Positions 1,848-59,174 are shown, numbered from the stretch's first letter. The stretch is DNA of 64,000 bases from an uncultured Bacillales bacterium (GCA_946615975.1 CAMOID010000002.1:7808-71807), one strand, 5' to 3'. The notes: generated from the letters alone by a model not told the origin. Numbers and translations are program-made.

Positions 1848-4280
1848 CTAGTCTTTATTTAATGATAATTTTTTATTATTTTTATATTTTTCTTGAATAT
1901 ATTTTTGATATATATTTAATATCTTTATATATTCATCTCTTATTGCAACTGGAGTTGTATTAAATGCTTCTGCAACTTCTTTAAATGAATGTTTATGATC
2001 ATCATATTTACCAACTAGTAAATCTAATATGATTTTATCCCTTAATTCTAATTGACCTATTAATTCAGAATAACTTAAATTTAAAATCATTTCTAATAGA
2101 TATTCATTTTCATAGTCAATTTCAAATTTAGTTGAAGATGTTTCTGTTGATTTTTTATCAGATACTAAAATTGGTTCTTCTACAACTAAGTTTCTTTCTT
2201 TTATAGTTTCTTGTTTTTCTTTAGGTTTTCTACCTCTTCTTTTAGCTGGTTCTTTTGGATTTAATACCTTTTCAACTTTTGCTTTAAATTTTCTTAAAAT
2301 ATTAGTATACAATTTAAGATTTTCTTCATGTGTTAATTTAGTAACAATTGGATTATTAAAATCTCCACCTAGTTTTTTAGCCATTAAATCAACTTCAACT
2401 GGATTCATTTCACTTAATACTTGATCTACTACTTCTCTAGGAGCATCTACATATGTATATATATCTACAAATGGTACTCTTTCTTTTCTTGAACTTACTA
2501 CTTTAATTGGTTCTGTTTTTTCATTATTTGTCATATTTTTTTCTCCTTTCTTTAAAACTGGTATATTTTCTCTTTTTATTGTTTTATTTTTTCTAGATGA
2601 TATTACTTTTGGAACACAATCTTGATATAAATCTCCTTCGTATTCATCTGGTCTTCTTTCATTTATTTGTTTTTCTTTTTTCTTTTTCTTCTTAGTATAT
2701 GATGATTTATAAGAATCTAATAAACTTAAATCAGATAGATTTCTTTTTTGTTTCTTAATTTTATCTTTTATAGTATCATCATCTATTTTTATTTCATCCT
2801 CAGTAGAAATATAATCTAATGTCATTTGTTTGAATTTTCTATTATTTCTTAGTTTATTTAATGCTTTTGATTCTATTTGTCTTATACGTTCACGAGTAAC
2901 ATTGAAAATTTTACCTACTTCCTCTAGTGTTCTTTTTGAACCTGTATCTAATCCAAATCTAAGAATTAATACCTCTTTTTCTTTATCTGTTAAATTACTT
3001 GATTTTAAGCCTTCTCTTACATCTTCTATTAGTTTAGATGAAATAGCTTCATCTTCTATTAAATCTTTTTCATCATTGACAAAATCACCTAATTCAGTGG
3101 CTACTCCATGATCATCTTCACCTATAGGTTGATTTAATGAAGTTGCATCAGCTTGTAACTTTAACATATATTCAACTGATTCAACTGAGACACCTGTTTC
3201 TTCAGCTATTTCATACGCTGTTGGTTCGTGAGCTAAATCAGTTTTAATTTTATTATAAACGGATGTAAACGAATTCATCTTTTCAACCATATGAACTGGC
3301 AATCTTATAGTTCTTGCTTTATCAGCAATTCCTCTTGTTATTGCTTGTCTAATCCACCATGTAGCATATGTAGAAAATTTATAACCTTTTCTTACATCAA
3401 ATTTATCTATTCCTTTCATTAATCCAATGTTACCTTCTTGGATTATATCTAGAAATTGCATACCTCTTCCTGTATATTTTTTAGCTATAGAAACAACTAA
3501 ACGTAAATTAGCTTCTGCTAATTTTTTCTTAGCATCTTCATCACCATTTAAAATTCTATATCCTAATCTTACTTCTTCATCTAATGATAAAAGTGGTATT
3601 CTACCTATTTCTTTTAAATATTGTTTTACTGGATCTAAATCTACAAATTTTTCTTCATTTTCTTTATCAATTTTAAATTCAGATAAATCTAAATCTATTT
3701 TAATATCAATTTGATTTAATTCAGCATATGTTTCAATTAATGAAGTTAAAGTTATATCATCAAATATATCTGTGTATTCACCTGCTTCAATCACTGGTTT
3801 ATATTCATCAAATATAATTTTCATATAATCTTGTATTGTTTTATTATTTTCAATTATATATTTTAATACATCCAGACCAACTAAAACTTTGTTAAGTCCT
3901 ATAAATCTTGATATTTTCTTTATTTCTTTAACTATATCATCTATATCTTTTTTATTTTTTAAATTCTTATTAATAAAGTTATTTATTATTTCTTTAAATG
4001 TATCTGTTTCTTGAATATCAATTAAATATTTAGATATTCCCATTCTAATTGATGCAATAAAATATGATTTATAATCATATTTAGAATTTTTACTATATTT
4101 ACTAAAAGAATCTGATATTTGACTTTTTGCTAGTTTATCAAATTCATTTTTTGGCATATTAAGAAAACTATACTCTTTGTATAATTTATCAATATCTACT
4201 GATAAATCAGATAGAAGATCTTCATAACTTAGTTGCTTAAATTTATCATAATCATTCTTCATAAACTTATTATAAAACAA
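1848..4280 (-). CDS. sigA: Primary-type sigma-70 factor (RpoD/SigA-like), 810 aa, with lineage-specific N-terminal (~215 aa) and C-terminal (~325 aa) extensions
   Basis: Region 1.2 [17 protein letters not shown]; region 2 [61 protein letters not shown]; region 4.2 [28 protein letters not shown] (aa ~215-480). About 325 further in-frame residues follow. Confidence 0.85.
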
Positions 4281-17101: not shown

Positions 17102-18220
17102 CTATTTTAATGCTTCTTGAATAACCACTTTAGCTTTATCAATAGATTCTTGATTTGGGAACATTACCCAATCATTTCCTTGTCCTAAATTAACTGGAGC
17201 ATGTCCATCAGATCCATCTACTGATTGTTGATTAATCTTCCAATTATTACCGTTTGCCATTGTATCTTTAATGATAGCTGTAACATTTGCCATAGGTACT
17301 GTTGTTTCATACATACCATCAACAGCAGTTAATACTGAATCAAACTTAGTAATAATGTCAGGAGATGCCATCTTCTTAAATATTGCTGTCATTAATGCTT
17401 GAACATTCTTTTGTCTAGCTCTATCTCCACCTGGTAATTTTAATCTTTCTCTAGATATAGTTAATACTTGAATACCATTTAAATGTTGCCATCCTGGTAC
17501 TACATGTAACTTAGATCCAGTTGAATCATCATATGTATCTAATACTTGTGCATGTGTAGTCCAATATTCTCCATCATCATTGTAATATTCAATTCCACCT
17601 ATTGTATCAACAAGTGTTACAACAGATGTTGTATCAATATCTAAATAATAATCAATCTTAATATCAAATAAGTTTGCAAGTGAATCACTTGTAACATTTA
17701 TACCTTGTCTAATAAATGATAATTTATCTTTCTTACCATATCCAGCTACTTCAATATAATAATCTCTTGGTACAGATGTCATTAAAACTGTTTGTTTAGT
17801 AACATTAACAGTTAAAATCATATTAAAGTCTCTGAAGTTATCAAAGTCATGTCCTGATATTAAAATATTATATGCTTCAGTTGGTCCTTCTACTTTTTCA
17901 CTACTACCAAAACTTGTCTTTAAGAAACTAAATGTTTTATTTATATAGTAATTACCAATTATATTTATATCACAGAATAAAACTAAGAATATAAAGAAGA
18001 ATGCTCTTAATAATTTCTTTTTAACATTTATTAATAATAAGAATAATAAATTAATAAGTGTATAACCACCTATAGCAGCAATTAAGAATTTAGTTGGTAA
18101 AATATCAATTGATATAACTTGATATAAAACTATTATTGAATAAACTATACTAAATAATAATACTAAATTCATTTTTTTGAATCTTAATTTTTTTCTATGT
18201 TTTGCTTTATAACGTGCCAT
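17102..18220 (-). CDS. LytR-CpsA-Psr (LCP) family cell-wall glycopolymer ligase
   Basis: Basic N-terminus, TM segments, then ILISGHD...FNMILTVN...LMTSVPRDYY...KLSFI and a SRERLKLPGGDRARQ region typical of LCP. The ORF-track start at 18283 is a TTG; the ATG at 18220 (MARYKAKHRKK, GGTGA RBS) is more plausible. Confidence 0.8.
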   Translation of the reverse strand: MARYKAKHRKKLRFKKMNLVLLFSIVYSIIVLYQVISIDILPTKFLIAAIGGYTLINLLFLLLINVKKKLLRAFFFIFLVLFCDINIIGNYYINKTFSFLKTSFGSSEKVEGPTEAYNILISGHDFDNFRDFNMILTVNVTKQTVLMTSVPRDYYIEVAGYGKKDKLSFIRQGINVTSDSLANLFDIKIDYYLDIDTTSVVTLVDTIGGIEYYNDDGEYWTTHAQVLDTYDDSTGSKLHVVPGWQHLNGIQVLTISRERLKLPGGDRARQKNVQALMTAIFKKMASPDIITKFDSVLTAVDGMYETTVPMANVTAIIKDTMANGNNWKINQQSVDGSDGHAPVNLGQGNDWVMFPNQESIDKAKVVIQEALK

Positions 18221-18410
18221 ATTATCACCATTATCATTTTTTCTTTCTCTAAATATTTTATAATATTTTGAGTTTTTAAACAATAGAAAAACAACTTCTT
18301 CTGAAGTTGTATTGTCTAGTTGAAATAGAAGTTGTTTTCCTAAAAAGAATAAAAAGGGGTTGGCTAGCGTGATACTAGCATCAATTCGCTATAAGTGAAT
18401 TGATAGTAAT
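18221..18410 (-). promoter_or_regulatory. Structured 5' leader of the LCP gene (promoter-like TTGTTT-16-TATAAT, two small hairpins, terminator-like hairpin)
   Basis: Minus-strand hairpins: tcaattc/gaattga (18381-18403), gctag/ctagc (18363-18379), and acaacttc-agaa-gaagttgt (18291-18310) followed by TTTTTCTATTGTTT. A second copy of aaaacaacttc (18328-18338) can pair with the same 3' arm. Confidence 0.3.
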
Positions 18411-51518: not shown

Positions 51519-51595
51519 GGCGGCGTTGGTGAAGTGGTTAACACGCCAGATTGTGGCTCTGGTATGCGTGGGTTCGATTCCCACACGCCGCCCCA
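51519..51595 (+). tRNA. tRNA-His (anticodon GTG) with genome-encoded G-1 and CCA
   Basis: G-GCGGCGT..CCAGA-TTGTGGC-TCTGG..GTGGG-TTCGATT-CCCAC-ACGCCGC-C-CCA. The extra 5' G opposite C73 is the His identity element. The 71-aa ORF at 51495..51710 is spurious. Confidence 0.92.
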
Positions 51596-51637: not shown

Positions 51638-51713
51638 TATTAATTATTATTTGAATATAAATCTTTTAATTTATGCCCTTTTTCATACAATAAAAAAAAG
51701 AGTATATTAAACT

Positions 51714-51914
51714 CTATTTTTCTTTTTTTGTTTTAACAACAATTTCGTCTGATTCAACTTCTTTATTCTTGTTTTCATCAATACCTAATTTGTTGTTTAT
51801 TTTCTTTTTTGCTTTTCTAAAGTAAATACCAAATGCAGCTCCAATTGCAATTGCAATACCTGCAATAGCTTGGATAGCATATGTCATTACTGATGGATCA
51901 ATATAACCTAACAT
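51714..51914 (-). CDS. Small single-TM membrane protein (66 aa), last gene of the ABC/LicC/YidC-TagF operon
   Basis: The TM segment YAIQAIAGIAIAIGAAFGIYF is followed by a Lys-rich tail. The start overlaps the upstream stop (TAATG). Confidence 0.5.
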   Translation of the reverse strand: MLGYIDPSVMTYAIQAIAGIAIAIGAAFGIYFRKAKKKINNKLGIDENKNKEVESDEIVVKTKKEK

Positions 51915-53971
51915 TATTTATTCTCCTTTCCCTTTTTAATATGTTCTTGTAATGATTCAATAATATATTTTGCTTCTACTTCAGCGCTATCACCCAAGTT
52001 ATAAACATATTCATCAACAATTGATTCGATTTTCTTTTCATATTTTTTCTTTGATTTAAGCATGTTTTCTACAACTTTATCAATTTTTTTAACTTGATCA
52101 ACTTTTACTAATTCACCTATTTCATCTCTAATCCAAATATTAAATGGTTTTATTTTCATTTTTTCGTATTCTGGATTCATAATCTTCATTGGTGTATCAA
52201 TAAAAATTACTGGTTTCTTTGTAGTAAATGCAAATTCTGTAGAAATATCAGACCAATCTGTTATTAATATATCAGATTCGAATACTGTATTGTTTTTACT
52301 AAAGTCAGTTTGTATCTCAATTGTTTTATCATTTTTATAATGTTCTTTTAATTGTTCAAATCTTTCTTTAGCATGCCTTACTTGTTGTGGATGTGGTCTT
52401 ACAACAACTTTATAGTCATGTCCTTTTAAAGTTTCTAATACTTCATCTAAACATAAATCTATAATATTATCTTTTTGCCAAGACGGAGCAATTAATATTG
52501 TTTTTTGTTTATTAGTCTTTTTACTTCCTTTATAATCTTTTACCATGTTATCTAATAATGGATAACCTGCTTTAATAAGTTTTCTATTGCGATTATAAAT
52601 TTTATTGAATTCTTTTTCTTCATCATATTGATGTTTACCTGTACAGAAGATAGTGTCATAGTGTTTTGTAGCTTCATATCTTAAAGTTAAATTTGTACTA
52701 CCTTGACCATGTGGTAAATATATATATTCGATATCTTTCTTTAAATAACTTCTCTTAATATGATATGTTTCAAGGTCAGGCATAGTCATTACTACTATAT
52801 CTGCTTCCATTTTCATCATTAAAGTTATTAATTTTCTTTCAGCAATATAATATGCTTTAATTTGATTATTATTCTTTTCTAATTCAAATATATTATCATT
52901 ATAATCTGAAGTAATATAATGAATAGTTATATTAGTATTTTCTAATAAATATTCAATTACGTCTTTATAATATTTATAGAAACCATTACTTTCTGAATAG
53001 AATACTAAATGTTTATTAACAATTGAGAAGAATTTCTTGTAATCTTCTTTTTCTTTCTTCTTTTGCTCTGGAGTCATCTTAACTTTATTAGCTTTCTCCA
53101 TTTCTTTTAATTCTTTAGTACTCTTTTCGAGTTCTTCGTAATCAACATATTTTTTTGGATTGATTGCCATATTTAGTAATACTTGTTGAATAATTGCAAA
53201 TAAATTACTAAATACCCAATATAATGCAACACCAGCTGCTACAAAACATCCTAAATATAATGATAAACCTACTGAGAATGCCATCATTCCATATTTATTA
53301 GCTTTTGATTGTTCAGCTTGTAATACATTGATTGCATTTTGTGCAACACATAATAACCATGCACTTATACCAGCAATAATTGGTATTAACCATGCAATAC
53401 CTTTAACACTTACTGCTACCCATGTCAAATCAAATCCTAAAAATTTCATATTGATATTTTTAATATTGTTTCTAGTTTCTTCATTTATAACATTGCTATA
53501 TTCTTCAATGTTTTTATTTTCTTTAATATCATTAAATACTACTAATTCTATAGATGATGATTCTGGATCAACATCTGAATGTTTAGAAAGAGCTATTTCA
53601 ACTAATTTAGCTGATGTTTCTTCAGGTACTTGTGAAATATATGTAATCGGATGATTAATTACTTCAACTAATCCTAATAATAATAGTATTTGAATTACTA
53701 ATGGTATCAATGAAGCAAACGCATTATATTTTTCTTTTTTATATAAGTCAGCTTGTTCATCTGCTATCTTATCTTTATCACCAAAATACTTTATTTTAAT
53801 CTTATTAATATCAGGTTGCATTTTTACCATTTTAATTGAATTCTTTTGAACCCAAATAGAAATTGGTAACAATACAATCTTACTAAATAATGTAAATAGT
53901 ATTATGGCTATTCCATAATTTGTGAAAATGTTATAACAAAATAACATTATATCTCCTAATATTTTTGTCAT
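51914..53971 (-). CDS. Fusion protein: YidC/Oxa1-type membrane insertase domain (aa 1-~270) plus TagB/TagF-family CDP-alcohol phosphotransferase domain (aa ~313-685)
   Basis: YidC part: NYGIAIILFTLFSKIVLLPISIWVQKNSIKMVKMQPDINKIK...LYKKEKYN and AAGVALYWVFSNLFAIIQQ. TagF part: YLPHGQGS, ILIAPSWQ, VRPHPQ, ILITDWSDISTEFAFTTKKPVIFID. AAGGTGA RBS. Confidence 0.7.
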   Translation of the reverse strand: MTKILGDIMLFCYNIFTNYGIAIILFTLFSKIVLLPISIWVQKNSIKMVKMQPDINKIKIKYFGDKDKIADEQADLYKKEKYNAFASLIPLVIQILLLLGLVEVINHPITYISQVPEETSAKLVEIALSKHSDVDPESSSIELVVFNDIKENKNIEEYSNVINEETRNNIKNINMKFLGFDLTWVAVSVKGIAWLIPIIAGISAWLLCVAQNAINVLQAEQSKANKYGMMAFSVGLSLYLGCFVAAGVALYWVFSNLFAIIQQVLLNMAINPKKYVDYEELEKSTKELKEMEKANKVKMTPEQKKKEKEDYKKFFSIVNKHLVFYSESNGFYKYYKDVIEYLLENTNITIHYITSDYNDNIFELEKNNNQIKAYYIAERKLITLMMKMEADIVVMTMPDLETYHIKRSYLKKDIEYIYLPHGQGSTNLTLRYEATKHYDTIFCTGKHQYDEEKEFNKIYNRNRKLIKAGYPLLDNMVKDYKGSKKTNKQKTILIAPSWQKDNIIDLCLDEVLETLKGHDYKVVVRPHPQQVRHAKERFEQLKEHYKNDKTIEIQTDFSKNNTVFESDILITDWSDISTEFAFTTKKPVIFIDTPMKIMNPEYEKMKIKPFNIWIRDEIGELVKVDQVKKIDKVVENMLKSKKKYEKKIESIVDEYVYNLGDSAEVEAKYIIESLQEHIKKGKENK

Positions 53972-53987
53972 CTTATCACCTTATTCT

Positions 53988-54878
53988 CTATACATCGTAT
54001 GTTTTGTCAATTTGTTTTAATTCATTAAAAGTATCAATTTCTATAATATCTCCTTCATTACATTCTCTTACATGTATCTTATAATTTTTCTTACATACAT
54101 CTAAAATAACTTGTTCCCAATACTTTTCTTTACCACCTGGAGAATCATATACTTCTTTAATATCTTTTTCTATTTGTACAGCATCTTTTGCATCATAGTA
54201 TGAAATTCCATACATTTGATAGCAATCAATACCACCTTGTTTTTCTTTAGTAATAATTCCATTTTTTTCTTCAAAGCACCAGTCATCAGTTCTATCAACT
54301 TTTTTTCCTAGGAAATTTGACCAATATTCATATTTTCTTATTAAATTCGGATTGTATAAATATAAATCCGATTCTAATACATATGAATTAGCAAATTTAT
54401 CTCTTACTAAATAAGCAGAAGAAATGTTATTTGCTTCATTATAATGATCATTGTTAACTAATTTGATATTTGGATATTGGTGCTTTAATACTTCAAATTG
54501 TTCATGTAAATAACCTGTAACAATTATTATATCTTTTATTTCAGCTGCTTCACATGCATCTAATAATGTTTCAATTATCTTCTTTCCTTTAACTCTAACT
54601 AATGGTTTAGGCGTATTTAAAGTTATAGGAACCATACGTGATCCAAATCCAGCAGCTAGAAAGATTGCTCTTTTAACTTTGTATGGCTCTAATGCTTTAT
54701 ATCCCTCTTTAGTTATTTTATTATTGATATCAATAAATCCTTTTTCAAGTAAAGTAGCTACTATTTTATTAATAGTACCTAAAGACAATTTAGTTCCTTC
54801 AGATAATTTTCTTTGAGTTAAATTGCCTTCTTTGTCTAAATAAGTTAATACTTCAAATTCATTATATGTTAGTTCCAT
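53988..54878 (-). CDS. LicC-family nucleotidyltransferase (phosphocholine / phosphonate cytidylyltransferase-like) with an N-terminal winged-helix domain
   Basis: wHTH part: FEVLTYLDKEGNLTQRKLSEGTKLSLGTINKIVATLLEKGFI. This is followed by AIFLAAGFGSRMVPITLNTPKPLV, IIVTGYLHEQFEVLKHQY, ANSYVLESDLYLY and KYWEQV...IIEIDTFNEL. These run collinear with S. pneumoniae LicC as I remember it. I prefer the ATG at 54878 (GAAGGT RBS). Confidence 0.75.
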   Translation of the reverse strand: MELTYNEFEVLTYLDKEGNLTQRKLSEGTKLSLGTINKIVATLLEKGFIDINNKITKEGYKALEPYKVKRAIFLAAGFGSRMVPITLNTPKPLVRVKGKKIIETLLDACEAAEIKDIIIVTGYLHEQFEVLKHQYPNIKLVNNDHYNEANNISSAYLVRDKFANSYVLESDLYLYNPNLIRKYEYWSNFLGKKVDRTDDWCFEEKNGIITKEKQGGIDCYQMYGISYYDAKDAVQIEKDIKEVYDSPGGKEKYWEQVILDVCKKNYKIHVRECNEGDIIEIDTFNELKQIDKTYDV

Positions 54879-56445
54879 ATTTATACCTTCTTCTATCAAT
54901 TACATTTAATAAGTACATTATAAATTTCATTAAAACATTACATAATAAAATAAATAATGATACAAATGCTGCTTCACCTAACATTAAATTATCTTCATAT
55001 ACATTTATTAATAATGAAACAGGCATAGTATTTGTACTAAATAGGAATGATACAGCAGAAATTGTGATCATTGAATTTATGAAAAAGTAAGAGAACATTT
55101 CTCTTATTGTTTTCTTAGTACATGGTATTATTACGTCTTTAATAATTTTAAATGTACTAATATTAAATGTCTTACCTACTATTTCAAAGTTTTCATTTAC
55201 TTTTTGCAATGCATTATATGCTATTAAATAAGGACTTGCAAAGAAATGAATAATATTAACCAATATTAATATTATAAATGTGTTATATATAAAGGATGTT
55301 TTAAATGCCACTGTAAAAGATAAACCTAATACAATACCTGGCACTGCTAATGTAGATATTGAAAGAATATGAACGATTTTAGTTAACTTACTTTTTCTTC
55401 TAGCTGTTACATAAGCAGTAAAATATGCAATAGTTGTACCAATTATAGATACAAATATTGAAATAAATATTGAATTACCAAAATAAGCAAAGAAATCATC
55501 ACCAATTATATATTCTAAATGGCTTAACGAGAATGTTTTGTTCAATATAGGATTGTCAACAAAAGCATAATAAACAAAAGATCCAATTAATACGAATAGC
55601 ATTAATATAATAATAACCATGAATGTTTTTAATAAAATTCTTACATATTTATTTTCTATTTTCATTTCTGAATCATCAGCACCATCGTTTTTAGCAAAAT
55701 CTTTACTAAAAGTATCAAATAAGAATGATACTAAAGCTGGGATTAGTAAGAATAAACCAATCATAGTTCCTTTAGAGAAATCTAATAATCCAATTACTTC
55801 CTTATACAGAAATACAGGTAATGTTATAAATGTACCTCCTACAGCTAATGGAACGCCATAGTCTGTGAATATCATTGTAAATACTGCAAATATTGATGAA
55901 AAAATAGGTTTCTTCATATAGCAGAACGTTACATTTTTAAATGTTTGAAATTTATTCATCCCTAAAATTTTTGCATTATAATACATTGAATTATCAATAT
56001 AGTTAAATCCATCATCTAACATTAAAAATGCAACAGGGAATGAATAGACTATAGATCCTATAATTATTCCAACAGGTCCTATTACATTAAAATTAAAATG
56101 TGAAGATATAATACCATTATTACCAAATAAGTTAATTAATCCAAGTCCATGTGATATAGAAGGAATTAACATTGGAAGTGTTATTAATACCTTAATTATA
56201 GTTTTATGTTTTATATTAGCTCTATTAATTGTTAATGCTAACAAGTATGCAATAATTATTGAAATAATTGTAGATATCGATGTTACAAATAAAGAATTGC
56301 TAAGTGCATCCTTAAATGCGTTAGATGCTACTAGCGAATTAAAGTTTTCCCAACTTACTTTACTAACCATTACTGCTAATGGATAAAATACTGTTACTGC
56401 AAGAAATGCAAATATAAAATAATTTAAATAACTGCGTTTCTTCAT
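54862..56445 (-). CDS. ABC transporter permease, duplicated/fused two-domain type (~527 aa, about 12 TM)
   Basis: Two tandem permease halves, as in FbpB/AfuB/PhnU2-type importers. I prefer the ATG at 56445, which overlaps the ATPase stop (TAATG). Confidence 0.75.
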   Translation of the reverse strand: MKKRSYLNYFIFAFLAVTVFYPLAVMVSKVSWENFNSLVASNAFKDALSNSLFVTSISTIISIIIAYLLALTINRANIKHKTIIKVLITLPMLIPSISHGLGLINLFGNNGIISSHFNFNVIGPVGIIIGSIVYSFPVAFLMLDDGFNYIDNSMYYNAKILGMNKFQTFKNVTFCYMKKPIFSSIFAVFTMIFTDYGVPLAVGGTFITLPVFLYKEVIGLLDFSKGTMIGLFLLIPALVSFLFDTFSKDFAKNDGADDSEMKIENKYVRILLKTFMVIIILMLFVLIGSFVYYAFVDNPILNKTFSLSHLEYIIGDDFFAYFGNSIFISIFVSIIGTTIAYFTAYVTARRKSKLTKIVHILSISTLAVPGIVLGLSFTVAFKTSFIYNTFIILILVNIIHFFASPYLIAYNALQKVNENFEIVGKTFNISTFKIIKDVIIPCTKKTIREMFSYFFINSMITISAVSFLFSTNTMPVSLLINVYEDNLMLGEAAFVSLFILLCNVLMKFIMYLLNVIDRRRYKYGTNI

Positions 56446-57206
56446 TATAAATCGATTCCAGTACACTTCTCTATAGAAGATACTTTATCTCTTAAATGCT
56501 TAGTAACAAAATTTTTAACATAAGTGTTAGCTGGGTGATTATATATTTTATTAGGTGTATCGATTTGTTCAATCTTACCATCTTTCATAACCATAACTCT
56601 ATCAGACATAGAGAATGCTTCTTCTTGGTCATGGGTAATATATATCATTGTTGTATTAAATTGTTTTTGTAATTCTTTAATTGTTTTTCTTAAACCTAAT
56701 CTATTATCTGCATCTAAAGCAGACATAGGTTCATCAAATAATATAATATCCGGTTTTAATGCTAATGTTCTAACAATAGCAACTCTTTGTTGTTGTCCAC
56801 CACTTAATTGATGTGGATATTTATTAATATGCTCTTCCATATTTACTAGTTTAAGCATTTCTAGACTTCTTTCTCTAGCATTTTTTTTATTTTTTAGTTT
56901 TAATTTAAGAGCATACATAACGTTTTCCAATACAGTCATGTTAGGGAAAAGAGCATAGTTTTGAAAAACCATACCCATTCCTCTTTTAGCTGGATCTACA
57001 TTTGTTATATTTCTAGTGCCTTTATGTATAGATCCTTTATCACATTTCTCAATACCAATAAGTATCTTTAATAATGTGGTTTTACCACATCCTGAAGGTC
57101 CTAAAATCGACAAAAATTCACCGTCTTTGACAGTGAAATTTAAGTCATCTAAAACAATTTTTTTATTGTATATTTTAGTTAAGCCCTTAACTTCAATATT
57201 AGCCAT
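56445..57206 (-). CDS. ABC transporter ATP-binding protein
   Basis: Walker A GPSGCGKTT, signature LSGGQQQRVAI, Walker B ILFDEP, H-loop THD. Confidence 0.9.
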   Translation of the reverse strand: MANIEVKGLTKIYNKKIVLDDLNFTVKDGEFLSILGPSGCGKTTLLKILIGIEKCDKGSIHKGTRNITNVDPAKRGMGMVFQNYALFPNMTVLENVMYALKLKLKNKKNARERSLEMLKLVNMEEHINKYPHQLSGGQQQRVAIVRTLALKPDIILFDEPMSALDADNRLGLRKTIKELQKQFNTTMIYITHDQEEAFSMSDRVMVMKDGKIEQIDTPNKIYNHPANTYVKNFVTKHLRDKVSSIEKCTGIDL

Positions 57207-58179
57207 TTATTTCATTCCATCTTTCAGTTAATTTATTTTTAACTTCAATACTTGAAATGTTTTTCATGTCTGCATCTTTTAAATTTGTTGGATTATTTTT
57301 AATAGCACTCTTTTGATTCTTGTATAAGTTTCCTAATACAAAGTTTTCTTTATCCCATGGGCCAAATTCATTAACGATGTAATCAAATACTTCTTTAACT
57401 CCATCTTTAGTTTCTCTTCCTTTAACAATTCCTAATGAAGTAGTATTGTAAGGAGTTCCTGTAGCTAATTCTATAATTTCTAATTCATATCCTTCATTAA
57501 TAGCTTGAACTGCTTCTGAAACCATACCCATTGCTAATTGAATTTCGCCTTGTTTTAATAAGTTAGTTGGACCTGATCCTGAAGTTGTAAATTCTCTTAC
57601 ATTTTTCTTTAATTCTTTGAAATATTCAATAGCTTTGTCTTCACCCATAATGTTAACAACATTTAAATAGAATGAATATCCACTTCCAGATGTCTTTGGA
57701 TCTGGCATAGCAATTAATCCTTTATATTTCTTATCTAATAAATCGTTATATGTTTTAGGAATATCTAAGTTATGTTCTTCGAAATATTTCTTATTTATAA
57801 TGATTCCAATTGGATATTTAGTCCACATTAAATAATTATTATCATTCTTGATACTATCTAAATATACATCATATTTTGTTCCAGATAAGTCAGCAAAATT
57901 ATCTTTTAAAGAATCCATATGAGATGTTTCTAGATCAATAACAATATCAGCTTCAATATTTTCTCCTTCATTTTTTACTTTTGCAGCAGTATTACCAGTA
58001 GACATATGTTGAAGAACTACCTTTTTATTAGGGAATTTTTCTTTAAGTCTTTCTTGTAAAACTTCTTCTCTTTCTTTTTCCATACATGAGTAGATGATAA
58101 CACTGTCTTTTTTAGCGCCACATCCTGCTAGTGCAATTACACCAACGAATACTAATAATAAACAAATGAACTTTTTCAT
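57199..58179 (-). CDS. ABC transporter substrate-binding lipoprotein (Fbp/Afu/PhnS-like class)
   Basis: I prefer the ATG at 58179 (AGGAAGGA RBS), giving MKKFICLLLVFVGVIALAGC (lipobox LAGC). The mature part is ~300 aa with PDPKTSGSGYSF and TSGSGPTN segments. Confidence 0.7.
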   Translation of the reverse strand: MKKFICLLLVFVGVIALAGCGAKKDSVIIYSCMEKEREEVLQERLKEKFPNKKVVLQHMSTGNTAAKVKNEGENIEADIVIDLETSHMDSLKDNFADLSGTKYDVYLDSIKNDNNYLMWTKYPIGIIINKKYFEEHNLDIPKTYNDLLDKKYKGLIAMPDPKTSGSGYSFYLNVVNIMGEDKAIEYFKELKKNVREFTTSGSGPTNLLKQGEIQLAMGMVSEAVQAINEGYELEIIELATGTPYNTTSLGIVKGRETKDGVKEVFDYIVNEFGPWDKENFVLGNLYKNQKSAIKNNPTNLKDADMKNISSIEVKNKLTERWNEING

Positions 58180-58213
58180 ATAAATCATCCTTCCTGTCTT
58201 GTTCATTATTAAT

Positions 58214-58242
58214 ATTATACCCCCCCGATATGAACATATCAA
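58214..58242 (-). promoter_or_regulatory. Promoter of the ABC/LicC/YidC-TagF operon with a G7 homopolymer in the spacer
   Basis: Minus strand TTGATA (58237-58242)-17 nt-TATAAT (58214-58219). The spacer ends in GGGGGGG (plus-strand C7 at 58220-58226), directly abutting the -10. Confidence 0.55.
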
Positions 58243-58261
58243 TACTAAATAGTATGCAAAC

Positions 58262-58286
58262 AAAAAAAACTAGGATTAACCTAGTT
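58262..58286 (-). terminator. Terminator after the PPIase gene
   Basis: Stem aactagg/cctagtt (58268-58274 / 58280-58286) followed by a T8 run on the minus strand. Confidence 0.7.
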
Positions 58287-58895: not shown

Positions 58896-59174
58896 TTATG
58901 AATTAAAAGTTCCTGTTATTGCCATCATTAAAATAATGATGAATATAAGAACCCAAAACCATAGTTGGTTTGCATAACTATCTTCTACTACTAACTTTCT
59001 ACCTTTCATATAAAGGTCATTCTTTTCCCAGTTATTAGTAGATAAATCTCTTTCAAATTTATCACATGCATCTGTAGAAGAATTCATATACTTCTTACAT
59101 TTTTTGCACATATATATTCCATCTTTTTTCTTATCTTTTGTATTTAAAAATTCGCAGTCAGAACAAAACCTCAT
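58896..59174 (-). CDS. Small zinc-ribbon protein with a C-terminal TM segment
   Basis: CSDC...CKKC Cys pairs plus WFWVLIFIIILMMAITGTF. Confidence 0.45.
   Translation of the reverse strand: MRFCSDCEFLNTKDKKKDGIYMCKKCKKYMNSSTDACDKFERDLSTNNWEKNDLYMKGRKLVVEDSYANQLWFWVLIFIIILMMAITGTFNS

Follow-up and report, generated by a model that had tools for sequence, protein, structure and literature searches.

The systems closest to the locus considered here, namely the Lic and Pnt pathways, PhnS2T2U2-type importers, TagF enzymes, and LtaS, are already known. The Lic pathway of Streptococcus pneumoniae and Haemophilus influenzae (LicB, LicA, LicC, and LicD) comprises import, cytidine triphosphate (CTP) activation by a LicC-fold enzyme, and phosphate transfer to an envelope glycopolymer. 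LtaS and GacH use glycerol-phosphate from phosphatidylglycerol and need no TagF-like or YidC-like partner, and the relays CsbB/GtcA/YfhO, GtrABC (glycosylation), and DltABCD-DltX (D-alanylation) have an activating or transferring enzyme in the cytoplasm and a transferase outside the cell, along with a membrane element and a small membrane peptide. In phosphonyl tailoring, a LicC-family nucleotidyltransferase (NTase), PntC, activates 2-aminoethylphosphonate (AEP) for surface glycans (Treponema denticola Tde1415 and Atopobium rimae PntC; PMC6697681). The TagF family includes single-transfer decorating enzymes with unusual cytidine diphosphate (CDP) donors, as shown by the TagF-like FtaD of Clostridioides difficile, which performs a single transfer from a CDP-amino-acid donor (bioRxiv 10.64898/2026.02.12.704994). 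Here, we describe an operon on the minus strand of a 64,000-nucleotide (nt) stretch of DNA from an uncultured Bacillales bacterium of the gut or rumen (GCA_946615975.1, CAMOID010000002.1:7808-71807; hereafter the window), which encodes an ATP-binding cassette (ABC) importer, an NTase with a winged helix-turn-helix (wHTH) domain, a fusion of a YidC domain with a TagF-like domain (YidC::TagF), and a peptide of 66 amino acids (aa). We propose, with a probability of roughly 55%, that a head group is imported, activated with CTP, and transferred by YidC::TagF to an acceptor in the envelope.

The operon and its supply cassette

Six open reading frames (ORFs), all in one direction on the minus strand, lie within 51.7-58.3 kb of the window, which is strongly AT-rich (~25% G+C). 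The coordinates below refer to start codons with ribosome-binding sites.

57199..58179, minus strand: lipoprotein substrate-binding protein (SBP), PhnS2/AfuA-like, 326 aa (profile and Protein Data Bank (PDB) matches)
56445..57206, minus strand: ABC ATPase, 253 aa (PhnT2, 329 bits)
54862..56445, minus strand: fused double permease, PhnU2-like, 527 aa (TIGR03262, 354 bits)
53988..54878, minus strand: wHTH-NTase gene, 296 aa
54684..54878, minus strand: predicted MarR/TrmB-type winged-helix domain, N-terminus of the NTase (HTH_24, MarR, TrmB)
53988..54683, minus strand: predicted LicC/PntC-type cytidylyltransferase domain (LicC 1JYK, E 1e-33)
51914..53971, minus strand: YidC::TagF gene, 685 aa
53162..53971, minus strand: YidC/Oxa1-type membrane domain, residues 1-270 (PF02096, TIGR03592)
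51914..53017, minus strand: predicted TagF-like (GT-B fold) CDP-alcohol phosphotransferase domain (PF04464, E 1e-12)
51714..51914, minus strand: 66-aa single-pass peptide, conserved directly 3' of the fusion

In gene order, the genes overlap by 8, 1, and 17 nt at the first three junctions, are 16 nt apart at the fourth, and overlap by 1 nt at the last. The gap, between the NTase and fusion genes, has the ribosome-binding site AAGGTGA as its sole content, and no convincing internal promoter or terminator was found there. A preliminary description of the sequence had named six coupled genes with these junctions, and all of the ORFs and overlaps were reproduced exactly. Its span for the unit, 51714-58263, holds for the gene set but not at the upper end: position 58263 is an upstream TTG located 5' of the promoter, and the SBP begins at 58179. 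The six-gene arrangement was also seen in independent metagenome contigs (L081). LicA, LicB, and LicD, which had been noted as missing, are indeed not among the six gene products. Unlike the Lic pathway, the operon has an ABC importer, putatively for phosphorus-bearing cargo, in place of the permease and kinase, and a TagF-like domain stands at the place of LicD.

The importer consists of an SBP, one ATPase, and a fused double permease, a layout that it has in common with PhnS2T2U2 and AfuABC/P5PA-type importers, among which the best models and structures were also found. The SBP has the signal peptide MKKFICLLLVFVGVIALAGC with the lipobox LAGC and scored 149 bits with the PhnS2 model TIGR03261 (cut-off 393), as against 46 bits at most with iron, thiamine, or polyamine models. 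The permease contains two BPD_transp_1 stretches and matched positions 12-543 of 546 of the PhnU2 model TIGR03262 (cut-off 593); the next-best model reached 102 bits and ThiP 78 bits. In both proteins, the PhnS2/PhnU2 scores far exceed those of thiamine, polyamine, molybdate, and sulfate models, which speaks against the iron, thiamine, or polyamine subfamilies that had been considered as alternatives. The ATPase matched positions 4-237 of 353 of the PhnT2 model TIGR03265 (cut-off 458). It is ~100 residues shorter than the model, its C-terminal part being absent, and its score is not discriminating, as PotA reaches 310 bits. Because the three proteins score best with these models yet well below the equivalog cut-offs, the importer is classified as a sister group of the putative AEP importer PhnS2T2U2, and not as a member of it. 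The solved SBPs nearest to that of the window are 8X1A, AfuA (4R72), and P5PA (6WCE). AfuA binds sugar phosphates, and P5PA is a binder of pyridoxal-phosphate, which agrees with the phosphorylated cargo suggested at the outset. A literature search found no paper for the PDB entry 8X1A, the top match. A paper on the glycerol-phosphate protein GpxB concerns a PhnD-type family and is inapplicable to the window SBP. Unlike PhnS2T2U2, the cassette occurs in a context of envelope synthesis, not of catabolism.

The NTase is assigned to the LicC/PntC type and not to the sugar-1-phosphate enzymes. It matched LicC of S. pneumoniae (1JYK) with an E-value of 1e-33 over 225 residues (68-292), and LAAGFGSRM in its nucleotide-binding loop aligned with LAAGLGTRL of LicC. 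Sugar-1-phosphate enzymes matched at 7e-9 or weaker; PntC and sugar-1-phosphate enzymes were reached at 1e-9 or weaker and through the nucleotide-binding loop only, so that overall similarity to Tde-PntC (E 1e-9) is low compared with LicC. HTH_24, MarR, and TrmB exceeded their cut-offs on residues 8-72 of the 303-aa NTase ORF. A LicC-family enzyme with an extra N-terminal winged helix, which is absent from LicC of the Lic pathway, had thus been recognized correctly.

The substrate pocket points to a particular head group. D107 of LicC, the metal-coordinating E216, and the aromatic box W136 and Y190 are kept in the NTase and its orthologues. On the other hand, D105 and D192 of LicC are both Glu in the window NTase, which also has an LESD motif as in PntC. 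In LicC, this Asp pair leaves room for a trimethylammonium group, whereas E104 and E196 of Tde-PntC contact the primary amine of AEP, and Ari-PntC retains the aromatic box yet prefers AEP (Rice et al., PMC6697681). The Glu/Glu pair was found in every NTase orthologue linked to an ABC importer and in all 20 NTase fusions to a serine/threonine-phosphate-decarboxylase-like domain, which should yield a phosphoethanolamine-type substrate; the sole Asp/Asp NTase in the set (L078) adjoins a kinase fusion, not an ABC importer. Since the Glu/Glu pocket is as in PntC and the importer is PhnS2-like, these two residues favor AEP or phosphoethanolamine rather than phosphocholine as the head group. The cargo had been described as AEP, phosphocholine, or similar; AEP is still among the likeliest candidates, and the residues of the pocket make phosphocholine less likely to be the favored substrate. 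Unlike PntC loci, which make AEP de novo (Ppm, Ppd, and AEP transaminase), the operon has only an importer.

The YidC::TagF fusion and its peptide

Relatives of the fusion were sought in one genome per GTDB species and were confirmed at no fewer than 531 genomic places, in Clostridia, RF39-like and other Bacilli, Erysipelotrichaceae, Lachnospiraceae (including cultured Waltera), and Saccharibacteria. Cultured carriers are Waltera intestinalis and Erysipelotrichaceae bacterium NK3D112. Eighty loci were fetched for comparison (81 with the window); the ORFs within 9 kb of the fusion were clustered over the 80 loci, and the cluster representatives were annotated. The fusion-peptide pair occurs across hundreds of species, and half of the operon is part of a widespread and so far uncharacterized module.

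Residues 1-270 of the fusion scored 117 bits with PF02096 (cut-off 35) and 113 bits with TIGR03592 (cut-off 84). The C-terminal 378 residues, scanned alone, matched positions 12-350 of 367 of PF04464 with 48 bits (cut-off 22.1). An AlphaFold2 model of the fusion (predicted local distance difference test 85.6) contains the helix pattern of YidC, a five-helix core with a cytoplasmic hairpin. When this model was searched with Foldseek, TagF (3L7K_D, E 1.7e-10; also 3L7L) ranked above every glycosyltransferase, and a profile of 58 related domains (A2) reached TarL 8VA1 at 4e-7. The fusion of YidC with TagF that had been read from the sequence is borne out by the scores of both domains and by TagF as the best structural neighbor. 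The C-terminal half shares PF04464 membership and the GT-B fold with TagF, TarL, and TarF, and according to the model it is a TagF-fold phosphotransferase on the cytoplasmic side. With 15% sequence identity to TagF, it is placed in a distinct subfamily. Two histidines (full-length numbering), H421 in FHS and H527 in RPHP, are invariant in the profiles A1 and A2. The RPHP motif aligns with KMHP of TarL, and H421 may be the counterpart of H444 of TagF. In TagF, H444 and H584 are the catalytic or pyrophosphate-binding histidines. Unlike TagF, TarL, TarF, and FtaD, the window domain sits behind a YidC/Oxa1 domain and is paired with a conserved peptide.

In the YidC groove, Lys31 aligns with R366 of Escherichia coli, so that the charge is kept but the residue differs; R366 and its counterpart R72 of Bacillus halodurans are the conserved arginine of the hydrophilic groove. 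A scan of 78 fusions located the motif in 62, of which 61 have Lys and one has Arg at this position. Residues ~108-175 of the fusion (53450-53650) form the outer loop between YidC helices 2 and 3, which is ~50 residues longer than in most homologues and appears as four short helices in the AlphaFold2 model. An exact look-up of the fusion protein showed that it is not on record. Databases name the fusion "membrane protein insertase YidC" and the peptide "hypothetical protein." A PADLOC search for defense systems returned nothing for either, and its matches to the NTase were confined to weak ones with wHTH proteins. No description of the fusion was found in the literature on YidC with TagF, glycerophosphotransferase, or LtaS, nor was one of its peptide or of their association with LtaS-like proteins in the searchable literature.

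The conserved core of the peptide runs from YIDPSVMTY through a hydrophobic helix and RKAKKK to LGIDENxNKEVExDxI. In ~75 of the 80 loci, the peptide is encoded immediately behind the fusion, with 50-95% identity. Its family comprises 1,799 clusters at 90% identity, and among the matches listed, all were 63-114 aa long and had neither a Pfam family nor an informative name. By the positive-inside rule, the YIDPS end would lie outside and the acidic tail in the cytoplasm, as the TagF domain must. Since sequence is conserved on either side of the membrane, the peptide may touch partners on both membrane faces. A cleavable signal peptide precedes the core in 17 of 58 loci, with AxA right ahead of the tyrosine; a signal-peptidase gene is adjacent in 12 of these 17 loci vs. 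7 of the 41 others (Fisher p 1.6e-4, kinship ignored). In the window, only Met-Leu-Gly precedes the tyrosine. A 65-aa ORF after the NTase in locus L088 (10907-11104) was rejected as a peptide, being the truncated N-terminus of an NTase-decarboxylase gene; this remnant shows the gain and loss of cassettes at that position.

Two modules and the proposed pathway

The operon is composed of two modules, a four-gene supply cassette (SBP, ATPase, permease, and NTase) and the pair of fusion and peptide. The two are adjacent in 4 of the 81 loci, in two orders and in four diverged lineages; besides the window, these are only L017, L018, and L060, in which the order (fusion, peptide, cassette) is the reverse of that in the window. 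Relatives of the cassette, obtained by look-ups of close NTase homologues, demonstrate that it is a unit of its own. The overlaps of 8, 1, and 17 nt are kept in the P0289 and P0364 loci, and P0358 keeps those of 8 and 1 nt, the third junction being 26 nt. In all three, the cassette heads Wzx/Wzy-type polysaccharide loci with LicD-family transferases and without YidC::TagF, and one further NTase homologue adjoins LicD without a transporter. The two blocks were thus joined repeatedly but rarely. The question whether the six genes travel together in relatives, raised at the outset, has a split answer: the four do and the two do, but not all six.

The commonest neighbor of the fusion, found in 68 of the 80 loci and with as many as six copies, is a ~550-aa membrane protein that contains a domain of the sulfatase superfamily. 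A profile of 36 such sequences finds LtaS of Staphylococcus aureus and then LtaS and LtaP of Listeria (E 1.5e-7 to 5e-4), whereas a single sequence as query gave no PDB match. An Asp, a Thr, a His, and an Asp-His pair are invariant in these LtaS-like proteins. Some database proteins are triple fusions, in either order (sulfatase-YidC-TagF or YidC-TagF-sulfatase), and they provide Rosetta-stone evidence that the three domains act together. A type I signal peptidase gene is located near the fusion in 24 loci. The wider context is one of wall-polymer synthesis, with a TagGH-like exporter, GT2, GT4, MnaA, LCP ligases, an O-antigen-ligase-like protein, and LicD. In contrast to these loci with one to six flanking LtaS-like proteins, tblastn with LtaS-like queries found no homologue anywhere in the 64-kb window, its sole extra match being an LCP ligase. 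The pathway had been drawn without LtaS-like transferases or signal peptidase, which are conserved partners elsewhere, and in this respect it was incomplete.

Of the 81 loci, 52 have a head-group cassette of some type no more than 9 kb from the fusion. One type is a LicC-like NTase fused to a serine/threonine-phosphate-decarboxylase-like domain (20 loci; 6OUX, 3.6e-41); another is a class V aminotransferase with a fusion of a TagD-like cytidylyltransferase to a GFO/IDH-type oxidoreductase (10-11 loci); and a third is wHTH-LicC with an APC permease and a fusion of wHTH-NTase to a choline/ethanolamine kinase. These three are found at the position next to YidC::TagF that the ABC cassette has in the window. 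The remaining types are a methyltransferase and the ABC cassette itself. The aminotransferase/TagD-like-oxidoreductase pair follows the peptide in L005, L008, L022, L028, L032, L035, L055, L058, and L065, and we speculate that it may convert CDP-glycerol to a CDP-amino-alcohol, for example CDP-serinol.

Several single loci are of note. The metagenome-assembled genome CAMJWT01 (L001 and L017) has two fusion-peptide-LtaS-like modules with TagF domains that are 88% identical, one copy by an ABC-plus-NTase cassette and the other in a locus that also has two LicD genes. In L027 (102-12523), a single fusion-peptide pair is preceded by six consecutive LtaS-like paralogues, which suggests several acceptor specificities or a primase/polymerase division of labor. 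In Waltera, Acetatifactor, and other Lachnospiraceae (L036-L042, L046, and L048), a GGDEF diguanylate cyclase with an SBP-like sensor is always directly 5' of the fusion, and the signal peptidase is encoded on the opposite strand after three LtaS-like genes. The cyclase hints at control linked to cyclic di-GMP.

The pathway that we propose for the window would proceed as follows. The first module would import a small head group that already bears phosphorus, most likely AEP or phosphoethanolamine and less likely phosphocholine, and the NTase with CTP would convert it to its CMP/CDP-activated form. The YidC-like domain would hold the TagF-like domain at the inner face of the membrane, where the latter would move the head group-phosphate or -phosphonate to a membrane-bound acceptor of a wall or lipid-anchored glycopolymer. 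In sister loci, an APC permease with a choline/ethanolamine-kinase fusion, or a serine-phosphate-decarboxylase fusion, occupies the place of the ABC importer. Because kinase or decarboxylase cassettes replace the importer there, the import of a ready-made phospho or phosphono head group without a kinase step, as had been suggested, fits. The TagF-like domain in the window would take the role that LicD has in sister loci, a replacement that is plausible because the cassette sits with LicD in relatives. In most other genomes, the fusion-peptide pair would work with LtaS-like extracellular transferases. The pair probably belongs to a new mode of envelope decoration.

A number of observations weigh against this pathway. 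None of the three importer proteins reaches the equivalog cut-off of its PhnS2, PhnT2, or PhnU2 model, and the Glu/Glu argument depends on one structural study. No head-group cassette was found within 9 kb in 29 of the 81 loci, and the similarity of TagF domains tracks lineage and not the type of the adjacent cassette. For these two reasons, the donor of the TagF domain may be a common one, for example CDP-glycerol, and cassette and fusion may be adjacent only because both reside in envelope loci. The partner of the cassette in the sampled relatives is LicD and not TagF. Pfam scans of ten ORFs at 1.8-18.3 kb gave housekeeping functions and an LCP ligase (17102-18283), most ORFs at 18-49 kb being unscanned; among the window ORFs scanned, there was neither a LicD nor a glycosyltransferase, and the acceptor pathway is not visible.

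One alternative is that cassette and fusion are unrelated neighbors, in which case the cassette would feed LicD-type or other transferases elsewhere, the fusion and peptide would use a housekeeping donor such as CDP-glycerol, and co-transcription would be incidental. The loci without a cassette, the TagF similarity that does not follow cassette type, and the association of the cassette with LicD are as expected from it. However, the 16-nt gap has room only for a ribosome-binding site and shows no convincing internal promoter or terminator, the juxtaposition recurs in two orders in four diverged lineages, some CDP-head-group cassette is present in 52 of 81 loci, and no other candidate consumer was seen among the window ORFs examined. 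We consider incidental adjacency unlikely. Somewhat more doubtful still is decoration with phosphocholine, in which the importer would take up phosphocholine or a precursor, the NTase would make CDP-choline, and the TagF-like domain would decorate a teichoic-acid-like polymer. LicC is by far the closest solved relative of the NTase, the aromatic box W136 and Y190 is conserved, LicD genes lie near the cassette in relatives, and one homologue has the JGI name "CTP:phosphocholine cytidylyltransferase-like." Nevertheless, both Asp residues that accommodate trimethylammonium are Glu here, as in the AEP-specific PntC; the aromatic box is also kept in the AEP-preferring Ari-PntC (PMC6697681); and the only Asp/Asp NTase goes with a kinase fusion instead of an ABC importer.

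Nutrient scavenging, in which AEP or some other organophosphorus compound would be taken up to supply phosphorus or nitrogen and the NTase would have a different role, would account for the best NCBIfam models being those of putative AEP transporters, but it is highly improbable. The 17-nt overlap of permease and NTase is a widely conserved junction, the cassette always lies within envelope-polymer loci, the operon has no further gene, and no phosphonate-catabolic enzyme was found among the window ORFs scanned with Pfam (most others being unscanned).

A relay through the membrane is a more tentative variant, which we regard as possible but improbable. The TagF domain would put the CDP-activated head group on a membrane lipid at the inner face, possibly diacylglycerol, in which case the donor would be a phosphatidyl-X; the YidC-like domain, its groove occupied or flanked by the peptide, would be a dedicated scramblase and not an insertase; and LtaS-like enzymes outside would discharge the head group-phosphate onto wall polymers, freeing the lipid for reuse. 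The interchangeable supply cassettes, including the ABC-plus-NTase cassette of the window, would determine the head group. Four observations suggest this relay: LtaS-like partners recur, triple fusions exist, the peptide has two faces, and E. coli YidC has been reported to scramble phospholipids in vitro. Its component architecture would be similar to that of CsbB/GtcA/YfhO, GtrABC, and DltABCD-DltX, but no component is homologous, and the chemistry here would be phospho-alcohol transfer.

If transfer by YidC::TagF is true, many uncultured Firmicutes of the gut and rumen, as well as Saccharibacteria, place zwitterionic head groups, whether scavenged or self-made, on their envelopes by machinery unlike the textbook Lic, Dlt, or LtaS routes. 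Envelope decorations of such kind shape immune recognition, phage adsorption, and resistance to cationic peptides. YidC::TagF would be the first Oxa1-family domain recruited to envelope-polymer chemistry and would allow a recent claim, that of lipid scrambling by insertases, to be tested in a natural setting; as cultured strains have the fusion, the question is open to direct test.

Promoter, candidate operator, and operon boundaries

The control elements and the features that bound the operon are as follows.

58214..58242, minus strand: sigma-70-type promoter TTGATA-17-TATAAT, 11/12 matches
58201..58236, no strand assigned: inverted repeat TGTTCA-N25-TGAACA, candidate operator, bracketing the -10 box
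58220..58226, minus strand: G7 tract in the promoter spacer (homopolymer count)
51691..51716, minus strand: weak hairpin of 5 bp (AGAGT..ACTCT) and T-run (T8), right behind the stop codon
51604..51631, no strand assigned: stronger bidirectional terminator common to the operon and tRNA-His (terminator scan)
51520-51595, plus strand: tRNA-His, convergent with the operon (Rfam scan)
58287-58267: terminator of the upstream peptidyl-prolyl isomerase gene, just before the operon promoter

The promoter and the weak terminator that had been proposed for the unit were both found. The promoter ranks second among the sigma-70 matches in the region, and an equivalent promoter is located 5' of orthologous cassettes. 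Alignment of the promoters of diverged cassettes revealed a conserved inverted repeat, TGTTCA-N22-27-TGAAC(A), of which the first half abuts the -35 hexamer and the second lies just past the -10 hexamer. The exact repeat is present 5' of the SBP gene in the window, L017, L060, and L084-86, and also 5' of the operons of APC permease and wHTH-LicC in L059 and L064; L018 and L078 have it with one mismatch. The window contains three matches to the pattern vs. 0.22 expected, two of them being both strands of one site. In the simplest reading, the wHTH domain of the NTase binds this repeat and probably represses its own operon. If so, the wHTH-NTase with its conserved candidate operator would represent a new enzyme that also serves as the repressor of its own operon.

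The G7 tract in the 17-nt promoter spacer is the sole run of six or more G or C in the 64 kb, in which 0.16 runs of seven or more are expected. G/C homopolymer tracts cause phase variation in other surface-decoration loci. No variation in length was found in three independent contigs, all of which have G7, and slipped-strand (phase-variable) control through spacer length is only a lead. An Rfam scan of 48-62 kb for riboswitches and RNA leaders gave the tRNA-His only. Terminator-like matches within the ATPase and fusion genes lie inside coding sequence and were taken as chance.

Two other ORFs of the window, both on the minus strand, have unusual features. A sigma-70 family protein (1848-4280; 810 aa in the listed ORF) has its sigma regions in residues 216-479, with long flanks on each side that have no Pfam match. 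A 92-aa ORF (58896-59174) encodes two CxxC pairs, which are zinc-ribbon-like, and a C-terminal hydrophobic helix, and it has its own perfect consensus promoter (59227-59199, 12/12).

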